Assembly: GCA_976551045.1 (NCBI GenBank)
Contig: CDPCPM010000015.1
Location: 10,540,001 to 10,604,000 of the forward strand
Reading direction: 5' to 3'
Source: Glaucostegus cemiculus
Taxonomy: Eukaryota
DNA length: 64,000 nucleotides
Positions within the stretch are counted from its first letter, which is position 1, and every line of letters begins with the position of its first letter. Positions 2,061-46,347 of the stretch are shown here, piece by piece. Both the position numbers and the translations under genes were made by a program. The notes under the pieces are model-generated. The model was not told the origin of the DNA. It searched no databases and saw only the letters and a list, made by a program, of their open reading frames with translations.

Positions 2061-2128
2061 CGTAAATAAATGGTCGTGCAGCTCGAGAAGGTAGCGTTTA
2101 AACTGCTCTGACTGTAAACATTGTTGAG
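2061..2128 (-). CDS. SEA domain exon 2 (LNNVYSQSSLNATFSSCTTIYLR)
   Basis: Acceptor tctcttccatcag|CTC, donor CG|gtaagg, 68 nt. Matches the length, Cys position and pattern of the short MUC16 SEA exon (LxxLFKNTSVGPLYSGCRLTLLR). Confidence 0.8.
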
Positions 2129-5100: not shown

Positions 5101-8100
5101 TTTCTACATCTCCCACCTGCTGATAGCTGTGAGAAAATGGCAGGGTAAAACATACGTGAAAAAACAAAACCAGAATCAGAGACAAGTCCACGAGAGCGCA
5201 AGAGGTGGTGCATAGTGCTCTGCTGTTAAGGTAGAGTTTGGGTTGTGCAGATTAGTTCAAGAACTTGATAGTAGCAGGAAAGTAGCTGCTCCTGAACTTG
5301 GTGGTGGGAGAACAAGATGAAAACAATTAAAAAACAGTCCATGCCAAATATTCCTGAGAAAACCTCAGACACAGTGCGGAAGAATATTACAGTCACAAGT
5401 TCTTGCAATGCTGAGATAAATTCTGTCATGACTTTCCCAGATTAGGTAAAAATAATACTTGCATATCTTAAAGCAGCAAAATGAGTGTCAGAAATATTGA
5501 ACACTGACTTTCTATTTATTGTACGGTCTGTGCCAAAAAACCAAAGACAAGGTGATAATGGAAATGAATCAAAATCAAAAAGTCTGGACCGTACTCAGAT
5601 AGAGAAAGAAGAGGAGCAAACTATTGCACGAGGCGTTGAATTCAACAATTCAGATTTTGAGTAGTGCATATCCTTCAGTCCACCTGGGGTCAGTTGAGTC
5701 AAAAGAGACATGACTGTCAACATACAAAAGCAATGGGAGAGTAAGGCGATTAAGGTCTCTATGTTATGATGATTAAGGTCACCAAGACTTGTATTGCTTT
5801 CCATGCCAGTTGAAAAATGCTTCCTGCTCATATCAGTGTCAAACAGTCAGCAACTGAGATGTGTATTGCTTTCCATCCCACCTGATACACTTAGAACTGT
5901 GGTGGATTCTGGTGATAATGACTGTACAGATGAGCTTGGTGTTGCTGATGTGGAGATCGTTGACTGCCCTGAACCTGCAGTCGAAGCTGAAGCCTGTTCA
6001 GATGTGTAAACCGATGGCTCGGCTGAACCTGAACTGGCTCCCATCGATACACCTATCAGAAGAAAAGAGAATCGAATTTCCCTGACGTTACCATCTACCT
6101 TATATCCTTGCACAGATGACCTGGTTGCATGCTGTTTCTCGCCGAAATGCAGTTTGCTCTTGCACAAACATTTGCCTGCATAGCAAAACTGCAGATGGAA
6201 TGCTATTGTGCCCACAGATGTCCCTGCCAGTAAAGGTCTTTCAAACAATAATTTCTTCTTACTTGTTTCTGCCGTATCCATCGTCACCGCAGTGCTTTCC
6301 TCTGAAGTCCATTGTGCCGCTGAGGGACTTGCCACTTTACTCGGAGGACTCCGAGTTGAATGTGCACTTGTAGCTGTGGATGACAAAGAATCCATTGACT
6401 GCAGGTGTGCCTGATTCAGGATGCGAAAACACACATCCAGCCTATCTGCACTTCGCGACTTCTATCCTCCTCTGCCGCACATGTGAATCAAAGTTTAGAC
6501 ACAGTTTAATCTGGCAAAGCAGACTGGGGACTTCCTTCGTCAGGAAAGCAAGGATGTGCACTACTGTTCTCAAAAGATTGGACATTCTGAAGTGCTTTGC
6601 AGATACTTGTTGCTTGCCTGACCCGGCTGCAGTTTGACAAGAGTGCTTTGACCAGTGATAACCTACCTCCTTCAGTGTCCTGAAGAGTCAGCGTGGCATT
6701 TGTCACCAATGTTGATTTTGATCGAGCAGTTGCAGCCTGTTCTCCAGAAGTTGTTGTCAGCCATGTTTCAGACGAGGATAGCTTTGGCACTGCAGATGAT
6801 GAAGATGAATGAATGGCAGATGAAACGGCTGCACCTGAAGATGGAAGTTGTTCATTCCTCTCTGTGCTTTCCATATGGAAAAGGACAACTTGGGACAATG
6901 ACATTGTCTTACTTGATTCACTTGTGAGAAAGGACCCAGTACTGCCGTCCTGTGTCGACGATATTGCTGCTGGGGAACTTGCTGTTTCTCTTGCACTGGT
7001 GGATAGCACCGATGAGCGTGGAGTTGCATCCTCAGCTAAGGTAGACACTGTTGGTGCTCCTGTAATTGTCGAAGGTTCTGAAAGTAAAGAGAAATTTTTG
7101 CTCAACAAGTGTTAGCTCCGATTTGCAGAAAGTTGTCTGCTCATTTCAGTGTCGAACGGCGAGCAACCGAGACGTGTATTGCTTTCCATCCCACCTGATT
7201 CACTTCTGACTGTGGTGGATTCTGGTGATAATGACTGTGCTGCTGAACGTTGTGTTGTCGATGAAGGGAATGTTGACTGCCCCGAACCTCCTGTCGAAGC
7301 CGAATCCTGTGCAGATGTGACAACTGATGGCTCAGCTAATCCTCCAGTCAACGCTATCGATGGTCCTGTCAGAAGAAAAGAGAATTAATTTGCCCTGACA
7401 TTGCCATGCCTCTTATCCTTGCATATAAGAGCTGGCTGCTCGATGTTTCTCTCCCAAGTACAGTTTGCCTTTGCGTAAAACTTTGCATTCAGAGGAAATC
7501 AGGAAATGGAATGCAATCGTGACAACTAATATCTCTGCCAAGCAAAGGAGTCGCAAATAATTATTTCCTCTCACTTGTTTCTCCTGTGTCCAATGTCACT
7601 GCAGTGCTCTCTTCTGATGACCATTGCGCCGCTGAGGAGCTTGCCATTTTACTCAGAGGGCTCGATGTGGAATGCGGAGTTGTAGCTGTCGATGACAAAG
7701 AATGCACTTACTGCAGCTGTGTCTGAGTCAGGATTAGAAAACACATTTGCACACATTTGCAATCTGCATTCGGCTACTTCTACCTTCTGCCACTCAGCGG
7801 AATCTAAGCTTAAAGACAGCATGAACTGGCAAAGGAGACCTGGGCACTTCCTTTATCTGCCATTTCATCATCTGCACATCTGTTGCTCAAAGACTGGACG
7901 TTATCAAGATCTTCGCAGATCCTTGTTGTTCCCCGCACTGGCTGATGTTTGACAAGTGTCTTTTGCTCAGTGATAACCTACCTCCTTCAGTGTCCTCAAG
8001 AGTCAGCGTGCTGTTTGACACCAAAGTTGATTTTGATCGAGAAGTTGCTGCCTTTTCACCAGAGGTTGTTGTCAGCACCGTTTCAGACGGGGATTGATTT

Positions 8101-11100
8101 GGCTCTGCGGATGTTTCAGATGGTTGAATGGCAGATGAACTTGCTGCACCAGAAGATAGAAGTTGTTCATTACTCTCTGTGACTACCATAGGATAATAAG
8201 GGGGAACTGGGGACAATGACAATGTCTTACTTCTTTCACTTGTGAGAAAGGAGCCAGTACTGCTGTCCAGTGTTGATGATATTGCTGCTGAGGAATTTGC
8301 TGTGGCTCTCTCACCGGTGGAGGACACAAACGAGTGTGCGGATGCATCGACAGCCAAGTTAGACTTTGTTGGTACTCCTGTCATTGTCGAAGGTTCTGAA
8401 AGTAGAGTGAACTTTGTGTTAAATGACCGTGTGTTCCCAATTGAAAAATGCTTCCTGCTCATTTCAGTGTCAAACAGTCAGCAACCGAGACGTGTGTTGC
8501 TTTCCATCCCACCTGATACACTTAGAACTGTGGTGGATTCTGGTGATAATGACTGTGCAGATGAGTTTGGTGTTGCTGATGTGGAGATCGTTGACTGCCC
8601 TGAACCTGCTGTCGAAGCTGAAGCCTGTGCAGATGTGTCAACCGATGGCTCGGCTGAACATGAACTGGCTCCCATCGATACACCTATCAGAAGAAAAGAG
8701 AAGCAATTTGCCCTGACGTTACCATCTACCTTATATCCTTGCACAGATGACCTGGTTGCATGCTGTTTCTCGCCGAAATGCAGTTTGCTCTTGCACAAAC
8801 TTTTGCCTGCATAGCAAAACTGCAGATGGAATGCTATTGTGCCCACAGATGTCCCTGCCAGTAAAGGTCTTTCAAACAATAATTTCTTCTTACTTGTTTC
8901 TGCCGTATCCATCGTCACCGCAGTGCTTTCCTCTGAAGTCCATTGTGCCGCTGAGGGACTTGCCACTTTACTCGGAGGACTCCGAGTTGAATGTGCACTT
9001 GTAGCTGTGGATGACAAAGAATCCATTGACTGCAGGTGTGCCTGATTCAGGATGCGAAAACACACTTCCAGTCTATCTGCACTTCGCTACTTCTATCCTC
9101 CTCTGCCGCACATGCGAATCAAAGTTTAGACACAGTTTAATCTGGCAGAGCAGACTGGGGACTTCCTTGGTCAGGAAAGCGAGGATGTGCACTACTGTTG
9201 TTAAAAGATTGGACATTCTGAAGTGCTTTGCAGATACTTGTTGCTTGCCTGACCCGGCTGCAGTTTGACAAGAGTGCTTTGACCAGTGATAACCTACCTC
9301 CTTCAGTGTCCTGAAGAGTCAGCGTGGCATTTGTCACCAATGTTGATTTTGATCGAGAAGTTGCAGCCTGTTCTCCAGAAGTTGTTGTCAGCCATGTTTC
9401 AGACGAGGATAGCTTTGGCACTGCAGATGATGAAGATGAATGAACGGCAGATGAAACGGCTGCACCTGAAGATGGAAGTCGTTCATTACTCTCTGTGCTT
9501 TCCATGTGGAAAAGGACAACTCGGGACAATGACATTGTCTTACTTGATTCACTTGTGAGGAAGGACCCAGTACTGCCGTCCCGTGTCGACCATATTGCTG
9601 CTGGGGAACTTGCTGTTTCTCTTGCACTGGTGGATAGCACCGATGAGCGTGGAGTTGCATCCTCAGCTAAGGTAGACACTGTTGGTGCTCCTGTAATTGC
9701 CGAAGGTTCTGAAAGTATAGAGAAATTTTTGCTCAACAAGTGTTAGCTCCGATTTGCAGAAAGTTGTCTGCTCATTTCAGTGTCGAACGGCGAGCAACCG
9801 AGACGTGTATTGCTTTCCATCCCACCTGATTCACTTCTGACTGTGGTGGATTCTGCTGATAATGACTGGGCTGCTGAACGTTGTGTTGTCGATGAAGGGA
9901 ATGTTGACTGCCCCGAACCTCCTGTCGAAGCCGAATCCTGTGCAGAAGTGACAACTGATGGCTCAGCTAATCCTCCAGTCAACGCTATCGATGGTCCTGT
10001 CAGAAGAAAAGAGAATTAATTTGCCCTGACATTGCCATGCCTCTTATCCTTGCATATAAGAGCTGGCTGCTCGATGTTTCTCTCCCAAGTACAGTTTGCC
10101 TTTGCGTAAAACTTTGCATTCAGAGGAAATCAGGAAATGGAATGCAATCGTGACAACTAATATCTCTGCCAAGCAAAGGTGTCTCAAATAATTATTTCCT
10201 CTCACTTGTTTCTCCTGTGTCCAATGTCACTGCAGTGCTCTCTTCTGATGACCATTGCGCCGCTGAGGAGCTTGCCATTTTACTCAGAGGGCTCGATGTG
10301 GAATGTGGAGTTGTAGCTGTCGATGACAAAGAATGCACTTACTGCAGCTGTGTCTGAGTCAGGATTAGAAAACACATTTCCACACATTTGCAATCTGCAT
10401 TCGGCTACTTCTACCTTCTGCCACTCAGCGGAATCTAAGCTTAAAGACAGCATGAACTGGCAAAGGAGACCTGGGCACTTCCTTTATCTGCCATTTCATC
10501 ATCTGCACATCTGTTGCTCAAAGACTGGACGTTATCAAGATCTTCGCAGATCCTTGTTGTTCCCCGCACTGGCTGCAGTTTGACAAGTGTCTTTTGCTCA
10601 GTGATAACCTACCTCCTTCACTGTCGGCAAGAGTCAGCGTGCTGTTTGACACCAAAGTTGATTTTGATCGAGAAGTTGCTGCCTTTTCACCAGAGGTTGT
10701 TGTCAGCACCGTTTCAGACGGGGATTGATTTGGCTCTGCGGATGTTTCAGATGGTTGAATGGCAGATGAACTTGCTGCACCAGAAGATAGAAGTTGTTCA
10801 TTACTCTCTGTGACTACCATAGGATAATAAGGGGGAACTGGGGACCATGACAATGTCTTACTTCTTTCACTTGTGAGAAAGGAGCCAGTACTGCTGTCCA
10901 GTGTTGATGATATTGCTGCTGAGGAATTTGCTGTGGCTCTCTCACCGGTGGAGGACACAAACGAGTGTGCGGATGCATCGACAGCCAAGGTAGACTTTGT
11001 TGGTACTCCTGTCATTGTCGAAGGTTCTGAAAGTAGAGTGAACTCTGTGTTAAATGACCGTTTGTTTCCAATTGAAAATTGCTTCCTGCTCATTTCAGTG

Positions 11101-14100
11101 TCAAACAGTCAGCAACCGAGACGTGTGTTGCTTTCCATCCCACCTGATACACTTAGAACTGTGGTGGATTCCGGTGATAATGACTGTGCAGGTGAGCTTG
11201 GTGTTGCTGATGTGGAGATCGTTGACTGCCCTGAACCTGCTGTCGAAGCTGAAGCCTGTGCAGATGTGTCAACCGATGGCTCGGCTGAACCTGAACTGGC
11301 TCCCATCGATACACCTATCAGAAGAAAAGAGAAGCAATTTGCCCTGACGTTACCATCTACCTTATATCCTGGCACAGATGACCTGGTTGCATGCTGTTTC
11401 TCTCCGAAATGCAGTTTGCTCTTGCACAAACTTTTGCCTGCATAGCAAAACTGCAGATGGAATGCTATTGTGCCCACAGATGTCCCTGCCAGTAAAGGTC
11501 TTTCAAACAATAATTTCTTCTTACTTGTTTCTGCCGTATCCATCGTCAACGCAGTGCTTTCCTCTGAAGTCCATTGTGCCGCTGAGGGACTTGCCACTTT
11601 ACTCGGAGGACTCCGAGTTGAATGTGCACTTGTAGCTGTGGATGACAAAGAATCCATTGACTGCAGGTGTGCCTGATTCAGGATGCGAAAACACACTTCC
11701 AGTCTATCTGCACTTCGCTACTTCTATCCTCCTCTGCCGCTCATGCGAATCAAAGTATAGACACAGTTTAATCTGGCAGAGCAGACTGGGGACTTCCTTG
11801 GTCAGGAAAGCGAGGATGTGCACTACTGTTGTCGAAAGATTGGACATTCTGAAGTGCTTTGCAGATACTTGTTGCTTGCCTGACCCGGCTGCAGTTTGAC
11901 AAGAGTGCTTTGACCAGTGATAACCTACCTCCTTCAGTGTCCTCAACAGTCAGCGTGCTGTTTGACACCAAAGTTGATTTTGATCGAGAAGTTGCTGCCT
12001 TTTCACCAGAGGTTGTTGTCAGCACCGTTTCAGACGGGGATTGATTTGGCTCTGCGGATGTTTCAGATGGTTGAATGGCAGATGAACTTGCTGCAGCAGA
12101 AGATAGAAGTTGTTCATTACTCTCTGTGACTACCATAGGATAATAAGGGGGAACTGGGGACAATGACAGTGTCTTACTTCTTTCACTTGTGAGAAAGGAG
12201 CCAGTACTGCTGTCCAGTGTTGACGATACTGCTGCTGAGGAATTTGCTGTGGCTCTCTCACCGGTGGAGGATACAAACGAGTGTGCGGATGCATCGACAG
12301 CCAAGGTAGACTTTGTTGGTACTCCTGTCATTGTCGAAGGTTCTGAAAGTAGAGTGAACTCTGTGTTAAATGACCGTTTGTTCCCAATTGAAAAATGCTT
12401 CCTGCTCATTTCAGTGTCAAACAGTCAGCAACCGAGACGTGTGTTGCTTTCCATCCCACCTGATACACTTAGAACTGTGGTGGATTCCGGTGATAATGAC
12501 TGTGCAGATGAGCTTGGTGTTGCTGATGTGGAGATTGTTGACTGCCCTGAACCTGCTGTCGAAGCTGAAGCCTGTGCAGATGTGTCAACCGATGGCTTGG
12601 CTGAACCTGAACTGGCTCCCATCGATACACCTATCAGAAGAAAAGAGAAGCAATTTGCCCTGACGTTACCATCTACCTTATATCCTGGCACAGATGACCT
12701 GGTTGCATGCTGTTTCTCTCCGAAATGCAGTTTGCTCTTGCACAAACTTTTGCCTGCATAGCAAAACTGCAGATGGAATGCTATTGTGCCCACAGATGTC
12801 CCTGCCAGTAAAGGTCTTTCAAACAATAATTTCTTCTTACTTGTTTCTGCCGTATCCATCGTCACCGCAGTGCTTTCCTCTGAAGTCCATTGTGCCGCTG
12901 AGGGACTTGCCACTTTACTCGGAGGACTCCGAGTTGAATGTGCACTTGTAGCTGTGGATGACAAAGAATCCATTGACTGCAGGTGTGCCTGATTCAGGAT
13001 GCGAAAACACACTTCCAGCCTATCTGCACTTCGCTACTTCTATCCTGCTCTGCCGCACATGCGAATCAAAGTTTAGACACAGTTTAATCTGGCAGAGCAG
13101 ACTGGGGACTTCCTTGGTCAGGAAAGCGAGGATGTGCACTACTGTTGTCGAAAGATTGGACATTCTGAAGTGCTTTGCAGATACTTGTTGCTTGCCTGAC
13201 CCGCCTGCAGTTTGACAAGAGTGCTTTGACCAGTGATAACCTACCTCCTTCAGTGTCCTGAAGAGTCAGCGTGGCATTTGTCACCAATGTTGATTTTGAT
13301 CGAGAAGTTGCAGCCTGTTCTCCAGAAGTTGTTGTCAGCCATGTTTCAGACGAGGATAGCTTTGGCACTGCAGATGATGAAGATGAATGAACGGCAGATG
13401 AAACGGCTGCACCTGAAGATGGAAGTTGTTCATTACTCTCTGTGCTTTCCATATGGAAAAGGACAACTTGGGACAATGACATTGTCTTACTTGATTCACT
13501 TGTGAGAAAGGACCCAGTACTGCCATCCCGTGTCGACGATATTGCTGCTGGGGAACTTGCTGTTTCTCTTGCACTGGTGGATAGCACCGATGAGCATGGA
13601 GTTGCATCCTCAGCTAAGGTAGACACTGTTGGTGCTCCTGTAATTGTCGAAGGTTCTGAAAGTAAAGAGAAATTTTTGCTCAACAAGTGTTAGCTCCGAT
13701 TGGCAGAAAGTTGTCTGCTCATTTCAGTGTCGAACGGCGAGCAACCGAGACGTGTATTGCTTTCCATCCCACCTGATTCACTTCTGACTGTGGTGGATTC
13801 TGCTGATAATGACTGGGCTGCTGAACGTTGTGTTGTCAATGAAGGGAATGTTGACTGCCCCGAACCTCCTGTCGAAGCCGAATCCTGTGCAGAAGTGACA
13901 ACTGATGGCTCAGCTAATCCTCCAGTCAACGCTATCGATGGTCCTGTCAGAAGAAAAGAGAATTAATTTGCCCTGACATTGCCATGCCTCTTATCCTTGC
14001 ATATAAGAGCTGGCTGCTCGATGTTTCTCTCCCAAGTACAGTTTGCCTTTGTGTAAAACTTTGCATTCAGAGGAAATCAGGAAATGGAATGCAATCGTGA

Positions 14101-29100: not shown

Positions 29101-32100
29101 CTGTTCTCCAGAAGTTGTTGTCAGCCATGTTTCAGACGAGGATAGCTTTGGCACTGCAGATGATGAAGATGAATGAATGGCAGATGAAACGGCTGCACCT
29201 GAAGATGGAAGTTGTTCATTACTCTCTGTGCTTTCCATATGGAAAAGGACAACTTGGGACAATGACATTGTCTTACTTGATTCACTTGTGAGAAAGGACC
29301 CAGTACTGCCGTCCCGTGTCGACGATATTGCTGCTGGGGAACTTGCTGTTTCTCTTGCACTGGTGGATAGCACCGATGAGCGTGGAGTTGCATCCTCAGC
29401 TAAGGTAGACACTGTTGGTGCTCCTGTCATTGTCGAAGGTTCTGAAAGTAAAGAGAAATTTTTGCTCAACAAGTGTTAGCTCCGATTTGCAAAAAGTTGT
29501 CTGCTCATTTCAGTGTCGAACGGCGAGCAACCGAGACGTGTATTGCTTTCCATCCCACCTGATTCACTTCTGACTGTGGTGGATTCTGGTGATAATGACT
29601 GTGCTGCTGAGCGTTGTGTTGTCGATGAAGGGAATGTTGACTGCCCCGAACCTCCTGTCGAAGCCGAATCCTGTGCAGATGTGACAACTGATGGCTCAGC
29701 TAATCCTCCAGTGAATGCTATCGATGGTCCTGTCAGAAGAAAAGAGAATTAATTTGCCCTGACATTGCCATGCCTCTTATCCTTGCATATAAGAGCTGGC
29801 TGCTCGATGTTTCTCTCCCAAGTACAGTTTGCCTTTGTGTAAAACTTTGCATTCAGAGGAAATCAGGAAATGGAATGCAATCGTGACAACTAATATCTCT
29901 GCCAAGCAAAGGTGTCTCAAATAATTATTTCCTCTCACTTGTTTCTCCTGTGTCCAATGTCACTGCAGTGCTCTCTTCTGATGACCATTGCGCCGCTGAG
30001 GAGCTTGCCATTTTACTCAGAGGGCTCGATGTGGAATGCGGAGTTGTAGCAGTCGATGACAAAGAATGCACTTACTGCAGCTGTGTCTGAGTCAGGATTA
30101 GAAAACACATTTCCACACATTTGCAATCTGCATTCGGCTACTTCTACCTTCTGCCACTCAGGAGAATCCTAGGTTAAAGACAGCATGAACTGGCAAAGGA
30201 GACCTGGGCACTTCCTTTATCTGCCATTTCATCATCTGCTCATCTGTTGCTCAAAGATTGGACGTTATCAAGATCTTCGCAGATCCTTGTTGTTCCCTGC
30301 ACTGGCTGCAGTTTGACAAGTGTCTTTTGCTCAGTGATAACCTACCTCCTTCACTGTCGGCAAGAGTCAGCGTGCTGTTTGACACCAAAGTTGATTTTGA
30401 TCGAGAAGTTGCTGCCTTTTCACCAGAGGTTGTTGTCAGCACCGTTTCAGACGGGGATTGATTTGGCTCTGCGGATGTTTCAGATGGTTGAATGGCAGAT
30501 GAACTTGCTGCACCAGAAGATAGAAGTTGTTCATTACTCTCTGTGACTACCATAGGATAATAAGGGGGAACTGGGGACCATGACAATGTCTTACTTCTTT
30601 CACTTGTGAGAAAGGAGCCAGTACTGCTGTCCAGTGTTGACGATATTGCTGCTGAGGAATTTGCTGTGGCTCTCTCACCGGTGGAGGACACAAACGAGTG
30701 TGCGGATGCATCGACAGCCAAGGTAGACTTTGTTGGTACTCCTGTCATTGTCGAAGGTTCTGAAAGTAGAGTGAACTTTGTGTTAAATGACCGTTTGTTC
30801 CCAATTGAAAAATGCTTCCTGCTCATTTCAGTGTCAAACAGTCAGCAACCGAGACGTGTGTTGCTTTCCATCCCACCTGATACACTTAGAACTGTGGTGG
30901 ATTCCGGTGATAATGACTGTGCAGGTGAGCTTGGTGTTGCTGATGTGGAGATCGTTGACTGCCCTGAACCTGCTTTCGAAGCTGAAGCCTGTGCAGATGT
31001 GTCAACCGGTGGCTCGGCTGAACCTGAACTGGCTCCCATCGATACACCTATCAGAAGAAAAGAGAAGCAATTTGCCTTGACGTTACCATCTACCTTATAT
31101 CCTGGCACAGATGACCTGGTTGCATGCTGTTTCTCTCCGAAATGCAGTTTGCTCTTGCACAAACTTTTGCCTGCATAGCAAAACTGCAGATGGAATGCTA
31201 TTGTGCCCACAGATGTCCCTGCCAGTAAAGGTCTTTCAAACAATAATTTCTTCTTACTTGTTTCTGCCATATCCATCGTCACCGCAGTGCTTTCCTCTGA
31301 AGTCCATTGTGCCGCTGAGGGACTTGCCACTTTACTCGGAGGACTCCGAGTTGAATGTGCACTTGTAGCTGTGGATGACAAAGAATCCATTGACTGCAGG
31401 TGTGCCTGATTCAGGATGCGAAAACACACTTCCAGCCTATCTGCACTTCGCTACTTCTATCCTGCTCTGCCGCACATGCGAATCAAAGTTTAGACACAGT
31501 TTAATCTGGCAGAGCAGACTGGGGACTTCCTTGGTCAGGAAAGCGAGGATGTGCACTACTGTTGTCGAAAGATTGGACATTCTGAAGTGCTTTGCAGATA
31601 CTTGTTGCTTGCCTGACCCGCCTGCAGTTTGACAAGAGTGCTTTGACCAGTGATAACCTACCTCCTTCAGTGTCCTGAAGAGTCAGCGTGGCATTTGTCA
31701 CCAATGTTGATTTTGATCGAGAAGTTGCAGCCTGTTCTCCAGAAGTTGTTGTCAGCCATGTTTCAGACGAGGATAGCTTTGGCACTGCAGATGATGAAGA
31801 TGAATGAACGGCAGATGAAACGGCTGCACCTGAAGATGGAAGTTGTTCATTACTCTCTGTGCTTTCCATATGGAAAAGGACAACTTGGGACAATGACATT
31901 GTCTTACTTGATTCACTTGTGAGAAAGGACCCAGTACTGCCGTCCCGTGTCGACGATATTGCTGCTGGGGAACTTGCTGTTTCTCTTGCACTGGTGGATA
32001 GCACCGATGAGCGTGGAGTTGCATCCTCAGCTAAGGTAGACACTGTTGGTGCTCCTGTCATTGTCGAAGGTTCTGAAAGTAAAGAGAAATTTTTGCTCAA

Positions 32101-35100: not shown

Positions 35101-38100
35101 GTAAAACTTTGCATTCAGAGGAAATCAGGAAATGGAATGCAATCGTGACAACTAATATCTCTGCCAAGCAAAGGAGTCGCAAATAATTATTTCCTCTCAC
35201 TTGTTTCTCCTGTGTCCAATGTCACTGCAGTGCTCTCTTCTGATGACCATTGCGCCGCTGAGGAGCTTGCCATTTTACTCAGAGGGCTCGATGTGGAATG
35301 TGGAGTTGTAGCTGTCGATGACAAAGAATGCACTTACTGCAGCTGTGTCTGAGTCAGGATTAGAAAACACATTTCCACACATTTGCAATCTGCATTCGGC
35401 TACTTCGACCTTCTGCCACTCAGCGGAATCTAAGCTTAAAGACAGCATGAACTGGCAAAGGAGACCTGGGCACTTCCTTTATCTGCCATTTCATCATCTG
35501 CACATCTGTTGCTCAAAGACTGGACGTTATCAAGATCTTCGCAGATCCTTGTTGTTCCCCGCACTGGCTGCAGTTTGACAAGTGTCTTTTGCTCAGTGAT
35601 AACCTACCTCCTTCACTGTCGGCAAGAGTCAGCGTGCTGTTTGACACCAAAGTTGATTTTGATCGAGAAGTTGCTGCCTTTTCACCAGAGGTTGTTGTCA
35701 GCACCGTTTCAGACGGGGATTGATTTGGCTCTGCGGATGTTTCAGATGGTTGAATGGCAGATGAACTTGCTGCACCAGAAGATAGAAGTTGTTCATTACT
35801 CTCTGTGACTACCATAGGATAATAAGGGGGAACTGGGGACCATGACAATGTCTTACTTCTTTCACTTGTGAGAAAGGAGCCAGTACTGCTGTCCAGTGTT
35901 GACGATATTGCTGCTGAGGAATTTGCTGTGGCTCTCTCACCAGTGGAGGACACAAACGAGTGTGCGGATGCATCGACAGCCAAGGTAGACTTTGTTGGTA
36001 CTCCTGTCATTGTCGAAGGTTCTGAAAGTAGAGTGAACTCTGTGTTAAATGACCGTTTGTTCCCAATTGAAAAATGCTTCCTGATCATTTCAGTGTCAAA
36101 CAGTCAGCAACCGAGACGTGTGTTGCTTTCCATCCCACCTGATACACTTAGAACTGTGGTGGATTCCGGTGATAATGACTGTGCAGATGAGCTTGGTGTT
36201 GCTGATGTGGAGATCGTTGACTGCCCTGAACCTGCTGTCGAAGCTGAAGCCTGTGCAGATGTGTCAACCGATGGCTCGGCTGAACCTGAACTGGCTCCCA
36301 TCGATACACCTATCAGAAGAAAAGAGAAGCAATTTGCCCTGACGTTACCATCTACCTTATATCCTTGCACAGATGACCTGGTTGCATGCTGTTTCTCTCC
36401 GAAATGCAGTTTGCTCTTGCACAAACTTTTGCCTGCATAGCAAAACTGCAGATGGAATGCTATTGTGCCCACAGATGTCCCTGCCAGTAAAGGCCTTTCA
36501 AACAATAATTTCTTCTTACTTGTTTCTGCCGTATCCATCGTCACCGCAGTGCTTTCCTCTGAAGTCCATTGTGCCGCTGAGGGACTTGCCACTTTACTCG
36601 GAGGACTCCGAGTTGAATGTGCACTTGTAGCTGTGGATGACAAAGAATCCATTGACTGCAGGTGTGCCTGATTCAGGATGCAAAAACACACTTCCAGTCT
36701 ATCTGCACTTCGCTACTTCTATCCTCCTCTGCCGCACATGCGAATCAAAGTTTAGACACAGTTTAATCTGGCAGAGCAGACTGGGGACTTCCTTGGTCAG
36801 GAAAGCGAGGATGTGCACTACTGTTGTCAAAAGATTGGACATTCTGAAGTGCTTTGCAGATACTTGTTGCTTGCCTGACCCGGCTGCAGTTTGACAAGAG
36901 TGCTTTGACCAGTGATAACCTACCTCCTTCAGTGTCCTGAAGAGTCAGCGTGGCATTTGTCACCAATGTTGATTTTGATCGAGAAGTTGCAGCCTGTTCT
37001 CCAGAAGTTGTTGTCAGCCATGTTTCAGACGAGGATAGCTTTGGCACTGCAGATGATGAAGATGAATGAACGGCAGATGAAACGGCTGCACCTGAAGATG
37101 GAAGTCGTTCATTACTCTCTGTGCTTTCCATATGGAAAAGGACAACTCGGGACAATGACATTGTCTTACTTGATTCACTTGTGAGAAAGGACCCAGTACT
37201 GCCGTCCCGTGTCGACGATATTGCTGCTGGGGAACTTGCTGTTTCTCTTGCACTGGTGGATAGCACCGATGAGCGTGGAGTTGCATCCTCAGCTAAGGTA
37301 GACACTGTTGGTGCTCCTGTAATTGTCGAAGGTTCTGAAAGTAAAGAGAAATTTTTGCTCAACAAGTGTTAGCTCCGATTTGCAGAAAGTTGTCTGCTCA
37401 TTTCAGTGTCGAACGGCGAGCAACCGAGACGTGTATTGCTTTCCATCCCACCTGATTCACTTCTGACTGTGGTGGATTCTGCTGATAATGACTGGGCTGC
37501 TGAACGTTGTGTTGTCGATAAAGGGAATGTTGACTGCCCCGAACCTCCTGTCGAAGCCGAATCCTGTGCAGAAGTGACAACTGATGGCTCAGCTAATCCT
37601 CCAGTCAACGCTATCGATGGTCCTGTCAGAAGAAAAGAGAATTAATTTGCCCTGACATTGCCATGCCTCTTATCCTTGCATATAAGAGCTGGCTGCTCGA
37701 TGTTTCGCTCCCAAGTACAGTTTGCCTCTGCGTAAAACTTTGCATTCAGCGGAAATCAGGAAATGGAATGCTATCGTGACAACTAATATCTCTGGCAAGC
37801 AAAGGTGTCTCAAATAATTATTTCCTCTCACTTGTTTCTCCTGTGTCCAATGTCACTGCAGTGCTCTCTTCTGATGACCATTGCGCCGCTGAGGAGCTTG
37901 CCATTTTACTCAGAGGGCTCGATGTGGAATGTGGAGTTGTAGCTGTCGATGACAAAGAATGCACTTACTGCAGCTGTGTCTGAGTCAGGATTAGAAAACA
38001 CATTTCCACACATTTGCAATCTGCATTCGGCTACTTCTACCTTCTGCCACTCAGCGGAATCTAAGTTTAAAGACAGCATGAACTGGCAAAGGAGACCTGG

Positions 38101-41100
38101 GCACTTCCTTTATCTGCCATTTCATCATCTGCACATCTGTTGCTCAAAGACTGGACGTTATCAAGATCTTCGCAGATCCTTGTTGTTCCCCGCACTGGCT
38201 GCAGTTTGACAAGTGTCTTTTGCTCAGTGATAACCTACCTCCTTCAGTGTCCTCAACAGTCAGCGTGCTGTTTGACACCAAAGTTGATTTTGATCGAGAA
38301 GTTGCTGCCTTTTCACCAGAGGTTGTTGTCAGCACCGTTTCAGACGGGGATTGATTTGGCTCTGCGGATGTTTCAGATGGTTGAATGGCAGATGAACTTG
38401 CTGCACCAGAAGATAGAAGTTGTTCATTACTCTCTGTGACTACCATAGGATAATAAGGGGGAACTGGGGACCATGACAATGTCTTACTTCTTTCACTTGC
38501 GAGAAAGGAGCCAGTACTGCTGTCCAGTGTTGACGATACTGCTGCTGAGGAATTTGCTGTGGCTCTCTCACCGGTGGAGGACACAAACGAGTGTGCGGAT
38601 GCATCGACAGCCAAGGTAGACTTTGTTGGTACTCCTGTCATTGTCGAAGGTTCTGAAAGTAGAGTGAACTCTGTGTTAAATGACCGTTTGTTCCCAATTG
38701 AAAAATGCTTCCTGCTCATTTCAGTGTCAAACAGTCAGCAACCGAGACGTGTGTTGCTTTCCATCCCACCTGATACATTTAGAACTGTGGTGGATTCCGG
38801 TGATAATGACTGTGCACATGAGCTTGGTGTTGCTGATGTGGAGATTGTTGACTGCCCTGAACCTGCTGTCGAAGCTGAAGCCTGTGCAGATGTGTCAACC
38901 GATGGCTTGGCTGAACCTGAACTGGCTCCCATCGATACACCTATCAGAAGAAAAGAGAAGCAATTTGCCTTGACGTTACCATCTACCTTATATCCTTGCA
39001 CAGATGACCTGGTTGCATGCTGTTTCTCTCCGAAATGCAGTTTGCTCTTGCACAAACTTTTGCCTGCATAGCAAAACTGCAGATGGAATGCTATTGTGCC
39101 CACAGATGTCCCTGCCAGTAAAGGCCTTTCAAACAATAATTTCTTCTTACTTGTTTCTGCCGTATCCATCGTCACCGCAGTGCTTTCCTCTGAAGTCCAT
39201 TGTGCCGCTGAAGGACTTGCCACTTTACTCGGAGGACTCCGAGTTGAATGTGCACTTGTAGCTGTGGATGACAAAGAATCCATTGACTGCAGGTGTGCCT
39301 GATTCAGGATGCGAAAACACACTTCCAGCCTATCTGCACTTCGCTACTTCTATCCTCCTCTGCCGCACATGCGAATCAAAGTTTAGACACAGTTTAATCT
39401 GGCAGAGCAGACTGGGGACTTCCTTGGTCAGGAAAGCGAGGATGTGCACTACTGTTGTCGAAAGATTGGACATTCTGAAGTGCTTTGCAGATACTTGTTG
39501 CTTGCCTGACCCGGCTGCAGTTTGACAAGAGTGCTTTGACCAGTGATAACCTACCTCCTTCAGTGTCCTGAAGAATCAGCGTGGCATTTGTCACCAATGT
39601 TGATTTTGATCGAGAAGTTGCAGCCTGTTCTCCAGAAGTTGTTGTCAGCCATGTTTCAGACGAGGATAGCTTTGGCACTGCAGATGATGAAGATGAATGA
39701 ACGGCAGATGAAACGGCTGCACCTGAAGATGGAAGTTGTTCATTACTCTCTGTGCTTTCCATATGGAAAAGGACAACTTGGGACAATGACATTGTCTTAC
39801 TTGATTCACTTGTGAGAAAGGACCCAGTACTGCCGTCCCGTGTCGACGATATTGCTGCTGGGGAACTTGCTGTTTCTCTTGCACTGGTGGATAGCACCGA
39901 TGAGCGTGGAGTTGCATCCTCAGCTAAGGTAGACACTGTTGGTGCTCCTGTAATTGTCGAAGGTTCTGAAAGTAAAGAGAAATTTTTGCTCAACAAGTGT
40001 TAGCTCCGATTGGCAGAAAGTTGTCTGCTCATTTCAGTGTCGAACGGCGAGCAACCGAGACGTGTATTGCTTTCCATCCCACCTGATTCACTTCTGACTG
40101 TGGTGGATTCTGGTGATAATGACTTTGCTGCTGAACGTTGTGTTGTCGATGAAGGGAATGTTGACTGCCCCGAACCTCCTGTCAAAGCCGAATCCTGTGC
40201 AGATGTGACAACTGATGGCTCAGCTAATCCTCCAGTGAATGCTATCGATGGTCCTGTCAGAAGAAAAGAGAATTAATTTGCCCTGACATTGCCATGCCTC
40301 TTATCCTTGCATATAAGAGCTGGCTGCTCGATGTTTCTCTCCCAAGTACAGTTTGCCTTTGTGTAAAACTTTGCATTCAGAGGAAATCAGGAAATGGAAT
40401 GCAATCGTGACAACTAATATCTCTGCCAAGCAAAGGAGTCGCAAATAATTATTTCCTCTCACTTGTTTCTCCTGTGTCCAATGTCACTGCAGTGCTCTCT
40501 TCTGATGACCATTGCGCCGCTGAGGAGCTTGCCATTTTACTCAGAGGGCTCGATGTGGAATGTGGAGTTGTAGCTGTCGATGACAAAGAATGCACTTACT
40601 GCAGCTGTGTCTGAGTCAGGATTAGAAAACACATTTCCACACATTTGCAATCTGCATTCGGCTACTTCGACCTTCTGCCACTCAGGAGAATCCTAGGTTA
40701 AAGACAGCATGAACTGGCAAAGGAGACCTGGGCACTTCCTTTATCTGCCATTTCATCATCTGCACACCTGTTGCTCAAAGACTGGACGTTATCAAGATCT
40801 TCGCAGATCCTTGTTGTTCCCCGCACTGGCTGCTGTTTGACAAGTGTCTTTTGCTCAGTGATAACCTACCTCCTTCACTGTCGGCAAGAGTCAGCGTGCT
40901 GTTTGACACCAAAGTTGATTTTGATCGAGAAGTTGCTGCCTTTTCACCAGAGGTTGTTGTCAGCACCGTTTCAGACGGGGATTGATTTGGCTCTGCGGAT
41001 GTTTCAGATGGTTGAATGGCAGATGAACTTGCTGCACCAGAAGATAGAAGTTGTTCATTACTCTCTGTGACTACCATAGGATAATAAGGGGGAACTGGGG

Positions 41101-44100
41101 ACCATGACAATGTCTTACTTCTTTCACTTGCGAGAAAGGAGCCAGTACTCCTGTCCAGTGTTGACGATACTGCTGCTGAGGAATTTGCTGTGGCTCTCTC
41201 ACCGGTGGAGGACACAAACGAGTGTGCGGATGCATCGACAGCCAAGGTAGACTTTGTTGGTACTCCCGTCATTGTCGAAGGTTCTGAAAGTAGAGTGAAC
41301 TCTGTGTTAAATGACCGTTTGTTCCCAATTGAAAAATGCTTCCTGCTCATTTCAGTGTCAAACAGTCAGCAACCGAGACGTGTGTTGCTTTCCATCCCAC
41401 CTGATACACTTAGAACTGTGGTGGATTCTGGTGATAATGACTGTGCAGGTGAGCTTGGTGTTGCTGATGTGGAGATCGTTGACTGCCCTGAACCTGCTGT
41501 CGAAGCTGAAGCCTGTGCAGATGTGTCAACCGATGGCTCGGCTGAACCTGAACTGGCTCCCATCGATACACCTATCAGAAGAAAAGAGAAGCAATTTGCC
41601 CTGACGTTACCATCTACCTTATATCCTGGCACAGATGACCTGGTTGCATGCTGTTTCTCTCCGAAATGCAGTTTGCTCTTGCACAAACTTTTGCCTGCAT
41701 AGCAAAACTGCAGATGGAATGCTATTGTGCCCACAGATGTCCCTGCCAGTAAAGGTCTTTCAAACAATAATTTCTTCTTACTTGTTTCTGCCGTATCCAT
41801 CGTCACCGCAGTGCTTTCCTCTGAAGTCCATTGTGCCGCTGAGGGACTTGCCACTTTACTCGGAGGACTCCGAGTTGAATGTGCACTTGTAGCTGTGGAT
41901 GACAAAGAATCCATTGACTGCAGGTGTGCCTGATTCAGGATGCGAAAACACACTTCCAGCCTATCTGCACTTCGCTACTTCTATCCTCCTCTGCCGCTCA
42001 TGCGAATCAAAGTTTAGACACAGTTTAATCTGGCAGAGCAGACTGGGGACTTCCTTGGTCAGGAAAGCGAGGATGTGCACTACTGTTGTCGAAAGATTGG
42101 ACATTCTGAAGTGCTTTGCAGATACTTGTTGCTTGCCTGACCCGGCTGCAGTTTGACAAGAGTGCTTTGACCAGTGATAACCTACCTCCTTCAGTGTCCT
42201 GAAGAGTCAGCATGGCATTTGTCACCAATGTTGATTTTGATCGAGAAGTTGCAGCCTGTTCTCCAGAAGTTGTTGTCAGCCATGTTTCAGACGAGGATAG
42301 CTTTGGCACTGCAGATGATGAAGATGAATGAACGGCAGATGAAACGGCTGCACCTGAAGATGGAAGTCGTTCATTAGACTCTGTGCTTTCCATATGGAAA
42401 AGGACAACTCGGGACAATGACATTGTCTTACTTGATTCACTTGTGAGAAAGGACCCAGTACTGCCGTCCCGTGTCGACGATATTGCTGCTGGGGAACTTG
42501 CTGTTTCTCTTGCACTGTTGGATAGCACCGATGAGCGTGGAGTTGCATCCTCAGCTAAGGTAGACACTGTTGGTGCTCCTGTCATTGTCGAAGGTTCTGA
42601 AAGTAAAGAGAAATTTTTGCTCAACAAGTGTTAGCTCCGATTTGCAGAAAGTTGTCTGCTCATTTCAGTGTCGAACGGCGAGCAACCGAGACGTGTATTG
42701 CTTTCCATCCCACCTGATTCACTTCTGACTGTGGTGGATTCTGCTGATAATGACTGGGCTGCTGAACGCTGTGTTGTCGATGAAGGGAATGTTGACTGCC
42801 CCGAACCTCCTGTCGAAGCCGAATCCTGTGCAGATGTGACAACTGATGGCTCAGCTAATCCTCCAGTGAATGCTATCGATGGTCCTGTCAGAAGAAAAGA
42901 GAATTAATTTGCCCTGACATTGCCATGCCTCTTATCCTTGCATATAAGAGCTGGCTGCTCGATGTTTCTCTCCCAAGTACAGTTTGCCTTTGTGTAAAAC
43001 TTTGCATTCAGAGGAAATCAGGAAATGGAATGCAATCGTGACAACTAATATCTCTGCCAAGCAAAGGAGTCGCAAATAATTATTTCCTCTCACTTGTTTC
43101 TCCTGTGTCCAATGTCACTGCAGTGCTCTCTTCTGATGACCATTGCGCCGCTGAGGAGCTTGCCATTTTACTCAGAGGGCTCGATGTGGAATGCGGAGTT
43201 GTAGCTGTCGATGACAAAGAATGCACTTACTGCAGCTGTGTCTGAGTCAGGATTAGAAAACACATTTCCACACATTTGCAATCTGCATTCGGCTACTTCT
43301 ACCTTCTGCCACTCAGGAGAATCCTAGGTTAAAGACAGCATGAACTGGCAAAGGAGACCTGGGCACTTCCTTTATCTGCCATTTCATCATCTGCACACCT
43401 GTTGCTCAAAGACTGGACGTTATCAAGATCTTCGCAGATCCTTGTTGTTCCCCGCACTGGCTGCAGTTTGACAAGTGTCTTTTGCTCAGTGATAACCTAC
43501 CTCCTTCACTGTCGGCAAGAGTCAGCATGCTGTTTGACACCAAAGTTGATTTTGATCGAGAAGTTGCTGCCTTTTCACCAGAGGTTGTTGTCAGCACCGT
43601 TTCAGACGGGGATTGATTTGGCTCTGCGGATGTTTCAGATGGTTGAATGGCAGATGAACTTGCTGCACCAGAAGATAGAAGTTGTTCATTACTCTCTGTG
43701 ACTACCATAGGATAAGAAGGGGGAACTGGGGACCATGACAATGTCTTACTTCTTTCACTTGCGAGAAAGGAGCCAGTACTGCTGTCCAGTGTTGACGATA
43801 TTGCTGCTGAGGAATTTGCTGTGGCTCTCTCACCGGTGGAGGACACAAACGAGTGTGCGGATGCATCGACAGCCAAGGTAGACTTTGTTGGTACTCCTGT
43901 CATTGTCGAAGGTTCTGAAAGTAGAGTGAACTCTGTGTTAAATGACCGTTTGTTTCCAATTGAAAAATGCTTCCTGCTCATTTCAGTGTCAAACAGACAG
44001 CAACCGAGACGTGTGTTGCTTTCCATCCCACCTGATACACTTAGAACTGTGGTGGATTCCGGTGATAATGACTGTGCAGATGAGCTTGGTGTTGCTGATG

Positions 44101-46347
44101 TGGAGATCGTTGACTGCCCTGAACCTGCTGTCGAAGCTGAAGCCTGTGCAGGTGTGACTAGATATGGCTCACCTAATGTTGTATTAGCTGTAATTGCTGC
44201 ACCTGTTGGAACAAAATTAAGTCAAACTGGCTTCCAAATTTTTCTGCATTTTTTGTTCTCGTGTCATAAATTGTTTATGATAACTCCAAGTGTTCCCCCG
44301 CACTGCACACATATTCCCCTCTCCTTTTCTTTCAGCAGTTGACTGAAATCGCTCCCTTCACTGTTCCGTTGTCTGCTCTTCCATTCTCAAGTGCCACTTC
44401 TTGTTGCAGTCACCTTGCAATGCAAACACTGGTTTTGTCACGTCTGTGCTTTCATCTCTTCCTCCCTACCATATCAGCAGATGAGCATTCTTTGATGCGA
44501 AGCATGGATTCACTTTCTCCTCTTTGAATCTCATTTATTACGCTCTTTGTTCACAATAAGGACTCCTCCCCATGCAGTAACCAAACACCGATCCGGAATC
44601 TCTTTGTGGAACTGCTGCTCTCAGTCTGCATATTGACCTAATCTTCCAGTTTCCTTCTGTTTATCTGACTGTCCCACTGCCCTCTGATCTCTTTCTTTGT
44701 GTACCCAGAGAAACAAAGCACTGAAGATGTTGGAATCGAGATGCAAATCCCAATGATTCTGGAGGAACTCAGCAGGCTAGGCTGCAGAAGATAGGAAAAG
44801 GGGAAGCCCAATATATAGGAAGGAAAATCAGAGCAGTGATGGGTGGACAAATGTGGGGAGGCAGGGTGGGCACGGGGTGGTGATAGGTTGATGCTGTTAA
44901 GAGATAGTGATAGGCAGGTGTGGGTGAGGAGGGGAGGGCAGATCCATGGGGGAATGCGTCAGAAGTCAGGAGAGATTTAAAAGTAAAGGGTAGCTAAAGG
45001 AGATAGGCTAGGGCATGGAAGAAGAGAAGAATCATGGTCAGTGAGTGTTGTGGAGAAGTGCTTGGAGATTACTTAAAGTGGGAGAATTCAATGTTCTTGT
45101 CTTTAAGCTGCAAGGTTCCTTGAGAGAAAATGAGGTGCTGTTACTCCAGTTTATGCTTCGAGTTCACCTGGCAGTGGAGGAGGCTGAGGAATGATCTACC
45201 CGTTGCCAGTCACTTCAACTCCCCCTCCCACATGATCACTGATATGTCAGTTCTCGTGTTTTTGCTATTTCTCTGTGGTCTCCTGCACTGTTAAAAGACC
45301 CAACTTAAACTGAAGGTTCAGCTCCTCATCTGCCATCTGGGCGTGTTGCAGCCTGCAGGACTCATTATCAATTTGTTTAACTTTAGATAACATTCTCATT
45401 CTTCCTGTTAATATAAGAACCATATCTTGTCTGCTCTCCTTCTCTTTCCCTGTGCATAATCTGTCCTGCTGAACTTGTCACAATTTGCCAAAACCACATC
45501 AGCAACAATTTACACAACCAAGTACCCTCTCCCATCTCCCACGTGTCTTCAGTCTATCAGTGAAATTCCCTTGGATTCAACCCCATTTTTCTGCTACCCA
45601 GGCTAACTTATTTCCCTTTCTCAGATCTGATGAAGACGCCCTCATCTGAAAATTAACTGTTTCTCTCTCCATAGACGTTGCCTGACCTGATTAGTTTTAC
45701 CAGCATTTTCCATTATCTTTTTTTCATATGTCATGTTTGTTCAGTTTTCTTACTCTCTCTACATATTGCTAGCCTTGCCTCACCACTTAGAACCCACTAC
45801 ACAGACCTGGAAGTTTCATGTGCTGATAATTGTCCCCATTAGACTATTTTGATCAATCCTATAACAGGTTCTCCCTTTGTTCTACACTTTCTTACTCCAT
45901 CTTCTCTCCTACTTAGAATTAGCTTGCACCTCTCTGTTTCCCAGTTCTAGTGAAGGGTCTCAACCCAAAACATTGACCATTTCTCTTTCCACATTTGCTG
46001 CCTGACCTACTGAGTTTTTCCAGCATTTCCTGATTTTGTTTCATATTTCCAGCATCTGCAGATTTTCTTTTTAGTAATCTGCTGTTGCTTTAGTCAGCAA
46101 TCTTCTTGCATAAATGTGTTTATTATGAACAATGCAATGGAATACAACAGCAAAACTTCTGTTTTTATTGGATGTATCACATTCTGCTGGATAAAAAAGC
46201 CACTGGCAGCCCATGTAACCCAAAGGTTTTCACAAAGTTATCTTATCTTACTTCTTTCTATTGTGTCCAATGTTGCAGCAGTGTTTTCTGTTGAATTTGC
46301 TCGTTCAGTTGTACTCAGTGATGAGGATGTTGACTGTGGAATTGTTG
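2061..46347 (-). CDS. Giant SEA-domain mucin (MUC16-like), multi-exon; incomplete at the 3' end (runs off the left edge) and 5' end not located
   Basis: Predicted order on minus strand: unique S/T exon 46252-46347, then 88 repeated phase 1-1 S/T exons (44202 down to 5882), then SEA exon 1 (3435-3595, phase 1 to 0), then SEA exon 2 (2061-2128, phase 0 to 2). All have AG/GT boundaries with compatible phases. Joining them into one transcript is inference. Confidence 0.8.
2330..2425 (+). mobile_element. CR1 3' tail
   Basis: gggctgaagggcttgtattgcgctgtactgttctatgattctatga. Confidence 0.6.
3435..3595 (-). CDS. SEA domain exon 1 (VDAPVLLHTHSPAQGVPPMFFNVTFIIINPPINNSLQNPASILHSITTNTLLVQ)
   Basis: Acceptor tttactgttttacag|TG, donor CAG|gtgagt, 161 nt. 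FNVTFIIIN...LQNPAS resembles the SEA N-terminus (FTLNFTITNL...M..PGS). Confidence 0.8.
3670..3985 (+). mobile_element. Rex1/Babar-type LINE 3' fragment
   Basis: ORF 3671-3853, CLKKVASIIEDPH...RRYRSLKSHATRFRNSYF, is a typical Rex1/Babar C-terminus. Confidence 0.75.
4630..5310 (-). mobile_element. Cluster of Rex1/Babar 3'-tail fragments
   Basis: Repeated gagtttattgtcat...acaatgaa...cttgcagcagcatcacagg tails and aagtagctgctcctgaacttggtggtg. Confidence 0.65.
5595..5713 (-). CDS. Candidate alternative terminal exon (VMSLLTQLTPGGLKDMHYSKSELLNSTPRAIVCSSSFSI*)
   Basis: Acceptor ttgcttttgtatgttgacag|TC is phase-1 compatible with the last array exon. TGA at 5595-5597 and a minus-strand AATAAA at 5515-5520. 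Confidence 0.35.
5882..6052 (-). CDS. Repeat exon B1 (171 nt; VSMGASSGSAEPSV...STTVLSVS); 16 copies, this is the 3'-most
   Basis: Acceptor tctcttttcttctgatag|GT, donor CAG|gtggga, 57 codons, phase 1-1. Confidence 0.8.
6263..6373 (-). CDS. Repeat exon C1 (111 nt; ATSAHSTRSPPSKVASPSAAQWTSEESTAVTMDTAET); 15 copies
   Basis: Acceptor ttctttgtcatccacag|CT, donor CAA|gtaaga, 37 codons. The same acceptor context occurs in the unique exon at 46347. Confidence 0.7.
6667..7077 (-). CDS. Repeat exon A2 (411 nt; EPSTITGAPTVSTLAED...TLTLQDTEG); 14 copies
   Basis: Acceptor tttctctttactttcag|AA, donor GAG|gtaggt, 137 codons, S/T-rich. Confidence 0.85.
7195..7365 (-). CDS. Repeat exon B2 (171 nt; PSIALTGGLAEPSVVTSAQ...STTVRSES); 14 copies
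   Basis: Acceptor ttctcttttcttctgacag|GA, donor CAG|gtggga, 57 codons. Paralog of B1. Confidence 0.8.
7575..7685 (-). CDS. Repeat exon C2 (111 nt; ATTPHSTSSPLSKMASSSAAQWSSEESTAVTLDTGET); 14 copies
   Basis: Acceptor ttctttgtcatcgacag|CT, donor CAA|gtgaga, 37 codons. Not in the ORF track. Paralog of C1. Confidence 0.7.
7982..8395 (-). CDS. Repeat exon A1 (414 nt; EPSTMTGVPTKS...TLTLEDTEG); 15 copies including the hybrid at 11929-12342
   Basis: Acceptor ttcactctactttcag|AA, donor GAG|gtaggt, 138 codons, S/T-rich. Confidence 0.85.
44032..44202 (-). CDS. 5'-most array exon, chimeric (GAAITANTTLGEPYLVTPAQASASTAG...)
   Basis: Unique acceptor ttttgttccaacag|GT. The first ~18 codons are diverged and the rest match B1. 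Length is still 171 nt. Confidence 0.8.
44705..45720. mobile_element. Penelope-like element remnants in head-to-head orientation (GIY-YIG C-terminus plus terminal repeat)
   Basis: Plus strand from ~45198 reads PVASHFNSPSH, a GIY-YIG-type C-terminal motif. An inverted copy spans ~44705-45190. A hammerhead-like motif lies at 45622-45659. Confidence 0.65.
45730..46075 (+). mobile_element. Penelope-like terminal fragment
   Basis: gaagggtctcaacccaaaacattgac...gctgcctgacctactgagtttttccagcatt...ttccagcatctgcag. Confidence 0.6.
46252..46347 (-). CDS. Unique exon-C-like S/T exon (ATIPQSTSSSLSTTERANSTENTAATLDTIER)
   Basis: Branch-like ttgac followed by ttctctctttcatccacag|CA, donor GAA|gtaaga, 96 nt, phase 1-1. 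Aligns with C1/C2 (STAVTLDT). Confidence 0.7.

Follow-up and report, generated by a model that had tools for sequence, protein, structure and literature searches.

A satellite-like tandem array of Glaucostegus cemiculus as the predicted 88-exon stalk of a MUC16-like membrane mucin

Introduction

In human MUC16 nine exons encode an N-terminal domain of ∼12,068 amino acids, and each of the 19 SEA repeats, which lie in tandem, has five exons (PMC3431878; PMC10829539); in 2006 it was the sole mucin then known with several SEA domains (Lang, 2006; PMC1552070). PTS domains that are spread over many exons have been described for chicken and zebrafish Muc13, where control of length by splicing was proposed (Lang, 2006; PMC1552070), for Xenopus MucXS/Otogl (PMC5789918) and for chicken MUC2, where the DNA flanking the domain is repeated and a PTS splice variant that keeps the frame is documented (PMC3549977). 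Schistosoma SmPoMuc genes contain ∼1-kb exon-plus-intron repeat units with introns that are > 93% identical, and give rise to many splice variants (PMC2576457). In the MaSp2 genes of Argiope the introns are 97.6% alike and of alternating types; this organization arose independently in clustered paralogues, intronless paralogues lie alongside, and the authors knew of no other gene with two alternating homogenized introns (PMC9779670). PMC4948705 and PMC3056801 contributed nothing on such a layout. A literature search, with most subscription journals outside its coverage, returned neither a description of the locus presented here nor a paper on the structure of a chondrichthyan MUC16 gene. LPA kringle IV-2 and the NBPF repeats may be vertebrate cases.

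Here we analyse a window of 64,000 nucleotides from Glaucostegus cemiculus (assembly GCA_976551045.1; contig CDPCPM010000015.1, hereafter C15, positions 10540001-10604000), in which a homogenized exon-plus-intron array forms part of a predicted mucin gene. With MUC16 the gene shares a predicted signal peptide, a giant Ser/Thr-rich (PTS) N-terminal domain, several SEA domains (four, of MUC16-type sequence), a membrane helix and a short tail. The human layout of few large PTS exons and 156-aa repeats of five exons (PMC3431878; PMC10829539), which we do not regard as defining the family, is absent; here 88 small exons encode ∼6,770 aa, the four SEA domains are divergent and have three exons apiece, and there are three tandem paralogues. 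Chicken Muc13, Xenopus MucXS/Otogl and chicken MUC2 belong to other mucin families; they likewise distribute the PTS domain over many exons, and the repeat exons of Muc13 are near-identical (PMC1552070; PMC5789918; PMC3549977). In chicken Muc13 each repeat is a single exon and the assembly is interrupted by a gap (PMC1552070); here a higher-order repeat of six exons and six introns is resolved over 38 kb. SmPoMuc has in common with the present gene a mucin repeat region built of exon-plus-intron units, but its exons are of 27 bp, there are at most ∼20 units per gene, and it is a parasite multigene family with demonstrated splice variation (PMC2576457). Homogenization of exon-plus-intron units within the gene, alternating intron types and, probably, independent origins in clustered paralogues are shared with Argiope MaSp2, which is a spider silk with one or two intron types (PMC9779670); the present gene encodes a predicted mucin of a vertebrate, and its six intron types alternate on two hierarchical levels.

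Results

The array contains 88 symmetric exons

The window is free of N and has a dominant period of 2631 bp from ∼5.8 to 44.2 kb. In this region exons delimited by splice-junction motifs follow one another in the fixed order B-A-C (Table 1). There are 30 B exons (171 nt), 29 C exons (111 nt) and two sizes of A exon (15 of 414 nt and 14 of 411 nt), each a multiple of three and phase 1-1, with a coding sum of 20,313 nt. The joined frame has no stop codon, against 225 and 311 in the two alternative frames. It encodes a peptide of ∼6,771 aa with 41% Ser+Thr (26% Ser, 15% Thr), 12% Ala, 6% Pro and three Cys. The introns measure 117 (n = 29), 293 (15), 296 (14), 209 (14) and 210 nt (15), and the monomers 1313/1318 bp. 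At least 29 genome matches were obtained for exon A, such repeat counts being lower bounds, and all of those listed lie inside the window.

The initial annotation had described these exon sizes, phases and coding sum, the series of intron lengths 117/296/209/117/293/210, stop-free exon copies and the words at the B/A, A/C and C/B junctions, and all of this was recovered across the 88 exons and 87 introns. Two of its statements need correction. Not all introns are GT-AG: 86 of the 87 are, and the acceptor of exon 33 reads TG (window 30050-30051). The tally of 14.5 dimers plus an extra B exon gives the right total, but the units are not strict dimers: the array consists of 29 monomers of three exons each and one additional B exon, and one of the monomers, number 25, is a hybrid. 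Skipping of exon 33 would preserve the frame, and the TG could also be a single-base assembly error. The B donor, GTGGGA, is off consensus at +4 and +6.

Table 1. Coordinates of the predicted features. Plain numbers are window positions; those preceded by C15 are contig positions.
Feature	Position	Strand
Exon 1, coding part (79 nt): ATG and predicted signal peptide, 26 aa, hydrophobic core, phase-1 donor	51255..51333	-
Exon 2: unique 96-nt phase 1-1 Ser/Thr-rich exon, like a diverged C exon	46252..46347	-
PTS array: 88 symmetric exons, 29 monomers (two alternating types) plus one B exon	5882..44202	-
First B exon, 5' third diverged (array edge)	44032..44202	-
Array exon 33 (C, type 1), acceptor TG instead of AG	29939..30051	-
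Hybrid monomer 25, 1316 bp, type 1 through the end of exon A, then type 2	11315..12630	-
SEA domain 1, first exon, 161 nt, phase 1-0, single copy in genome	3435..3595	-
SEA domain 1, second exon, 68 nt, phase 0-2	2061..2128	-
Twelve further exons, left of the window: remainder of SEA1, SEA2 to SEA4, membrane helix, tail with stop	C15:10539573 down to 10512054	-
Gene 2 PTS: single 2,331-nt exon, internal repeats, recurring single-cysteine motif	C15:10453629-10451299	
Gene 3 PTS array: 114 symmetric exons (110 of 159 nt), 18,093 nt, no stop, 60% Ser+Thr	C15:10336894-10285766	

The array lies inside a predicted membrane mucin gene

The initial annotation had not placed the array within a gene. 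It is preceded by a signal exon and followed by exons for SEA domains, a membrane helix and a tail. The resulting model, computed from splice signals and homology, has 104 exons and 22,242 nt and reads from ATG to stop through 7,413 aa without an internal stop; one of its 103 introns is non-canonical. The predicted order is signal peptide, PTS array, four SEA domains, membrane helix and tail. The proposal of a very large mucin domain made of symmetric exons is supported by a frame that joins a signal-peptide exon to four MUC16-type SEA domains, a helix and a stop codon, and by the depletion of stops and frameshifts described below. As to the product, for which either glycocalyx or mucus had been suggested, a membrane-tethered protein is predicted and not a gel-forming mucin. 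Open stretches on the plus strand reach 204 codons, but splice signals in register (signal, SEA and membrane exons) occur only on the minus strand, and coding from the plus strand was rejected.

Exon 1 is the sole hydrophobic ATG-to-donor exon in 17.6 kb scanned upstream and has two in-frame ATGs; its signal peptide was called by hydropathy rather than by a dedicated predictor. Each of the four SEA domains consists of three exons (phase 1-0, 68 nt of phase 0-2, and phase 2-1). The SEA domains of human MUC16 have a 68-nt middle exon. Scanned singly, two of the four SEA first exons gave a Pfam SEA match, one of them above the cut-off. The membrane exon is located at C15:10514702 and the tail exon with the stop codon at C15:10512054, and the C-terminal model of 583 aa comprises SEA domains, helix and tail alone, without an EGF domain. 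A LINE-like reverse-transcriptase fragment is found upstream of exon 1 (window 52300-54200, minus strand). Judged by eye and from candidate translations, LINE-like fragments and short interspersed repeats fill the flanks and are absent from the array.

The SEA domains are of the MUC16 type

The MUC16-type assignment comes from similarity searches with the third exon of SEA1. Against the PDB this exon gave three matches at E ≤ 10, all of them MUC16 (best E 4e-5). Four of eight candidate proteins matched it, all named mucin-16-like and belonging to three sharks and a chimaera, with 50-59% identity. The 583-aa C-terminal part aligned with the chimaera protein over 575 residues (40%), with both GSxKV motifs at matching positions. 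These motifs, GSVKV in SEA2 and SEA4, resemble the GSVVV cleavage motif of MUC1 (PMC3431878), so that the predicted product may be shed at these two domains. The four shark and chimaera models contain at most ∼255 aa of PTS sequence, compared with ∼6,770 aa here. Exon A itself had no protein homologue at E ≤ 1e-5 among 4,443 candidates (proteins up to 2,000 aa), and the array is therefore not corroborated in another species.

On this sequence evidence we file the gene as a MUC16-like membrane mucin rather than as a one-to-one orthologue of mammalian MUC16, since it is one of three paralogues and since the 28 exons scanned, of 32 candidates, from ∼200 kb upstream and 100 kb past the third gene of the cluster gave no Pfam match that would name a neighbouring gene.

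Two paralogues follow, one with an unrelated array

A profile search of 464 kb located 47 SEA domains and three membrane exons, all on the same strand, and a search of the genome brought up these three membrane exons alone. We interpret these as three MUC16-like paralogues in tandem: gene 1, which contains the array of the window and four SEA domains, followed by gene 2 with 25 and gene 3 with 18. A single giant gene across all 47 SEA domains was rejected, because each of the three membrane exons is followed by a tail-like exon (the stop being confirmed for gene 1). No signal exon or 5' end was found for gene 2, and one candidate for gene 3.

The PTS region of gene 2 is a single exon, whereas that of gene 3 is again an array (Table 1), in which introns vary by single bases and exons hold their length. 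The array units of genes 1 and 3 have no detectable DNA similarity (best blastn E 0.02 over 23 nt), which leaves a common origin of the two unsupported. The multi-exon PTS form has probably expanded twice in the cluster. The three-exon units of both arrays are near-equal in length, 1313/1318 bp in gene 1 and 1312/1313 bp in gene 3, which may be coincidence.

The SEA domains of genes 2 and 3 also form tandem exon-plus-intron arrays (C15:10278638-10266120 and 10446225-10397500); that of gene 3 comprises about nine almost identical copies of a 1488/1489-bp unit. Further SEA matches lie on contigs C143, C55, C573, C679, C119, C108, C508 and C318, and those inspected are unlike the MUC16-type exons of the cluster.

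Frame and splice signals are conserved between monomer types

Evidence of coding is clearest in the reading frame. None of the 218 exon changes (82 within and 136 between monomer types) creates a stop codon, compared with ∼8.5 expected from 87 intron differences (the two types of 117-nt intron being pooled); the P value of about 2e-4 is approximate, as variants were treated as independent. Taken separately, the 82 variants within types include no stop where 3.2 would be expected (P = 0.04), and the 136 between-type changes likewise include none (P = 0.004). Gaps follow the same pattern. No indel is seen within monomer types in any of the 88 exons, and between types the exons have one gap, of 3 nt, against seven in the introns, of which all but one shift the frame (six of seven; p = 0.011).

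A comparison of the two types shows 136 differences at 693 exon positions (0.196) and 136 at 530 positions of intron interiors (0.257; p = 0.013), and in 25 sampled monomer pairs exon divergence was 0.19-0.21 compared with 0.26 for intron interiors. Splice signals differ at 11 of 84 sites (p = 0.013). Synonymous sites (0.255) diverge about as much as intron interiors (0.257), and dN/dS is about 0.70, a deviation that falls short of significance with synonymous sites alone as the reference (p = 0.09) and reaches it with synonymous plus intron sites (p = 0.011). Within types, π is 0.0140 for exons and 0.0135 for introns, in agreement with the earlier statement that introns are as alike as exons between units, and same-type copies are ∼98.6% identical, introns included. 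Here nonsynonymous and synonymous changes number 56 and 26 (24 synonymous expected of 82, p = 0.35), which is the neutral ratio. This parity and the neutral ratio are as expected for young homogenized copies. Equal exon and intron divergence with a dN/dS near 1, named at the outset as the outcome that would speak against the coding reading, is therefore seen in part: divergence is equal within types, whereas between types the exons are the more conserved and dN/dS stays at ∼0.70.

Since all exons share phase 1-1 and lengths divisible by three, an in-register crossover or a lost splice site leaves the frame intact, and the targets of selection would consequently be the frame and the splice signals, with little effect on individual residues. 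A functional PTS domain should leave such a pattern, with frame and splice signals kept and residues under weak constraint, and the comparison of monomer types is consistent with one.

Copies are mosaics

Monomer 25 changes type near the end of exon A, and three type-1 A exons carry type-2 bases at their 3' end, the end at which monomer 25 switches. Twenty-eight of the 29 monomers are distinct, and variants at the 62 and 69 variable sites are shared in a mosaic, such that copies 5 and 13, copies 3 and 23, and copies 7, 9 and 15, though not adjacent, are closer to each other than most neighbouring copies are. We read the hybrid monomer, the type-2 bases and the mosaic variants as traces left by unequal crossover in register and by gene conversion. 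The initial annotation had envisaged tuning of length by unit copy number; change of copy number by unequal crossover is supported by the hybrid and the mosaic. Introns homogenized like the exons, and traces of crossover or conversion between units, are traits of the MaSp2 and SmPoMuc type.

Discussion

We consider it likely that the array forms the mucin stalk predicted for this MUC16-like gene, whose model is unbroken, and that it grew as whole exon-plus-intron units underwent in-register unequal crossover and gene conversion. A three-exon B-A-C block of ∼1.3 kb would have been duplicated, the two copies would then have diverged by about 20-25%, and the 2.6-kb dimer would have been amplified and homogenized to about 1.4% diversity. 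Most array exons would be spliced in, and the stalk would be O-glycosylated and project from the epithelial surface as glycocalyx, with a length set mainly by copy number.

The same gene could instead set the length of its stalk mainly at the RNA level, subsets of the 88 exons being skipped in a regulated or stochastic manner so that one allele yields a ladder of isoforms. Every array exon is frame-symmetric, and the one copy without an AG acceptor would probably be skipped harmlessly. Precedents exist in the in-frame PTS splice variant of chicken MUC2 (PMC3549977), in Xenopus FIM-C.1, called polymorphic through alternative splicing (PMC7177656), in the many SmPoMuc variants (PMC2576457) and in MUC16 transcripts that lack whole repeats (PMC10829539). 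However, symmetry is needed for exon duplication to be tolerated at all, and is therefore no indicator of skipping. The two monomer types have kept their splice signals, the acceptor is intact in 86 of 87 introns, and same-type copies are so alike, introns included, that little sequence is left for copy-specific control. We regard skipping as the main determinant of length as unlikely; length tuning by this route follows from exon symmetry only as a possibility. Nor is the idea new, since the proposal for chicken Muc13 precedes it (PMC1552070).

Somewhat more doubtful still is a broader scenario for the cluster, in which MUC16 was triplicated and two copies independently rebuilt their stalks as cassette arrays of 88 and 114 exons, from which tissue- or condition-dependent skipping would produce a ladder of glycocalyx lengths, while the third, single-exon copy would be of fixed length. 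If true, it would provide a splice-tuned glycocalyx in a vertebrate, with a control gene next door.

That the array is a recent, near-neutral amplification, now largely spliced out or unexpressed and with open frames inherited from the founding unit, appears very improbable. Such an origin would suit the equal diversity of exons and introns within types, the neutral ratio of nonsynonymous to synonymous changes and the youth of the copies (1.4%). Against it stand the absence of stops both within and between types, the lack of indels in 88 exons, the conserved splice signals and flanking exons that are intact and in frame; the second, unrelated array of the cluster behaves alike. Least probable of all is an assembly artefact, by collapse or over-expansion of a shorter array: some adjacent copies are near-identical (the longest identical run at lag 2631 is 2,415 bp), but the monomers are almost all distinct mosaics, the array edges are unique and diverged and the sequence lies without N inside a 21.6-Mb contig, and an artefact would alter the count, not the architecture.

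The architecture is a large, hierarchical version of a known multi-exon design with precedents in chicken, frog, schistosome and spider genes. Repeated-exon mucins are known; the present one is unusually large. A 38-kb repeat with the appearance of a satellite would make up > 90% of the coding sequence of a surface mucin, and under-annotation of such genes may be suspected, given that none of the four shark and chimaera models has more than a short stretch of PTS sequence. Within one family of paralogues the cluster combines two multi-exon arrays, unrelated to each other, with a PTS domain encoded by one exon, and so offers a rare comparison within a locus. It is relevant to the question which of the two PTS layouts is the ancestral one, and it makes the 2006 proposal of splicing-based control of mucin length directly testable.
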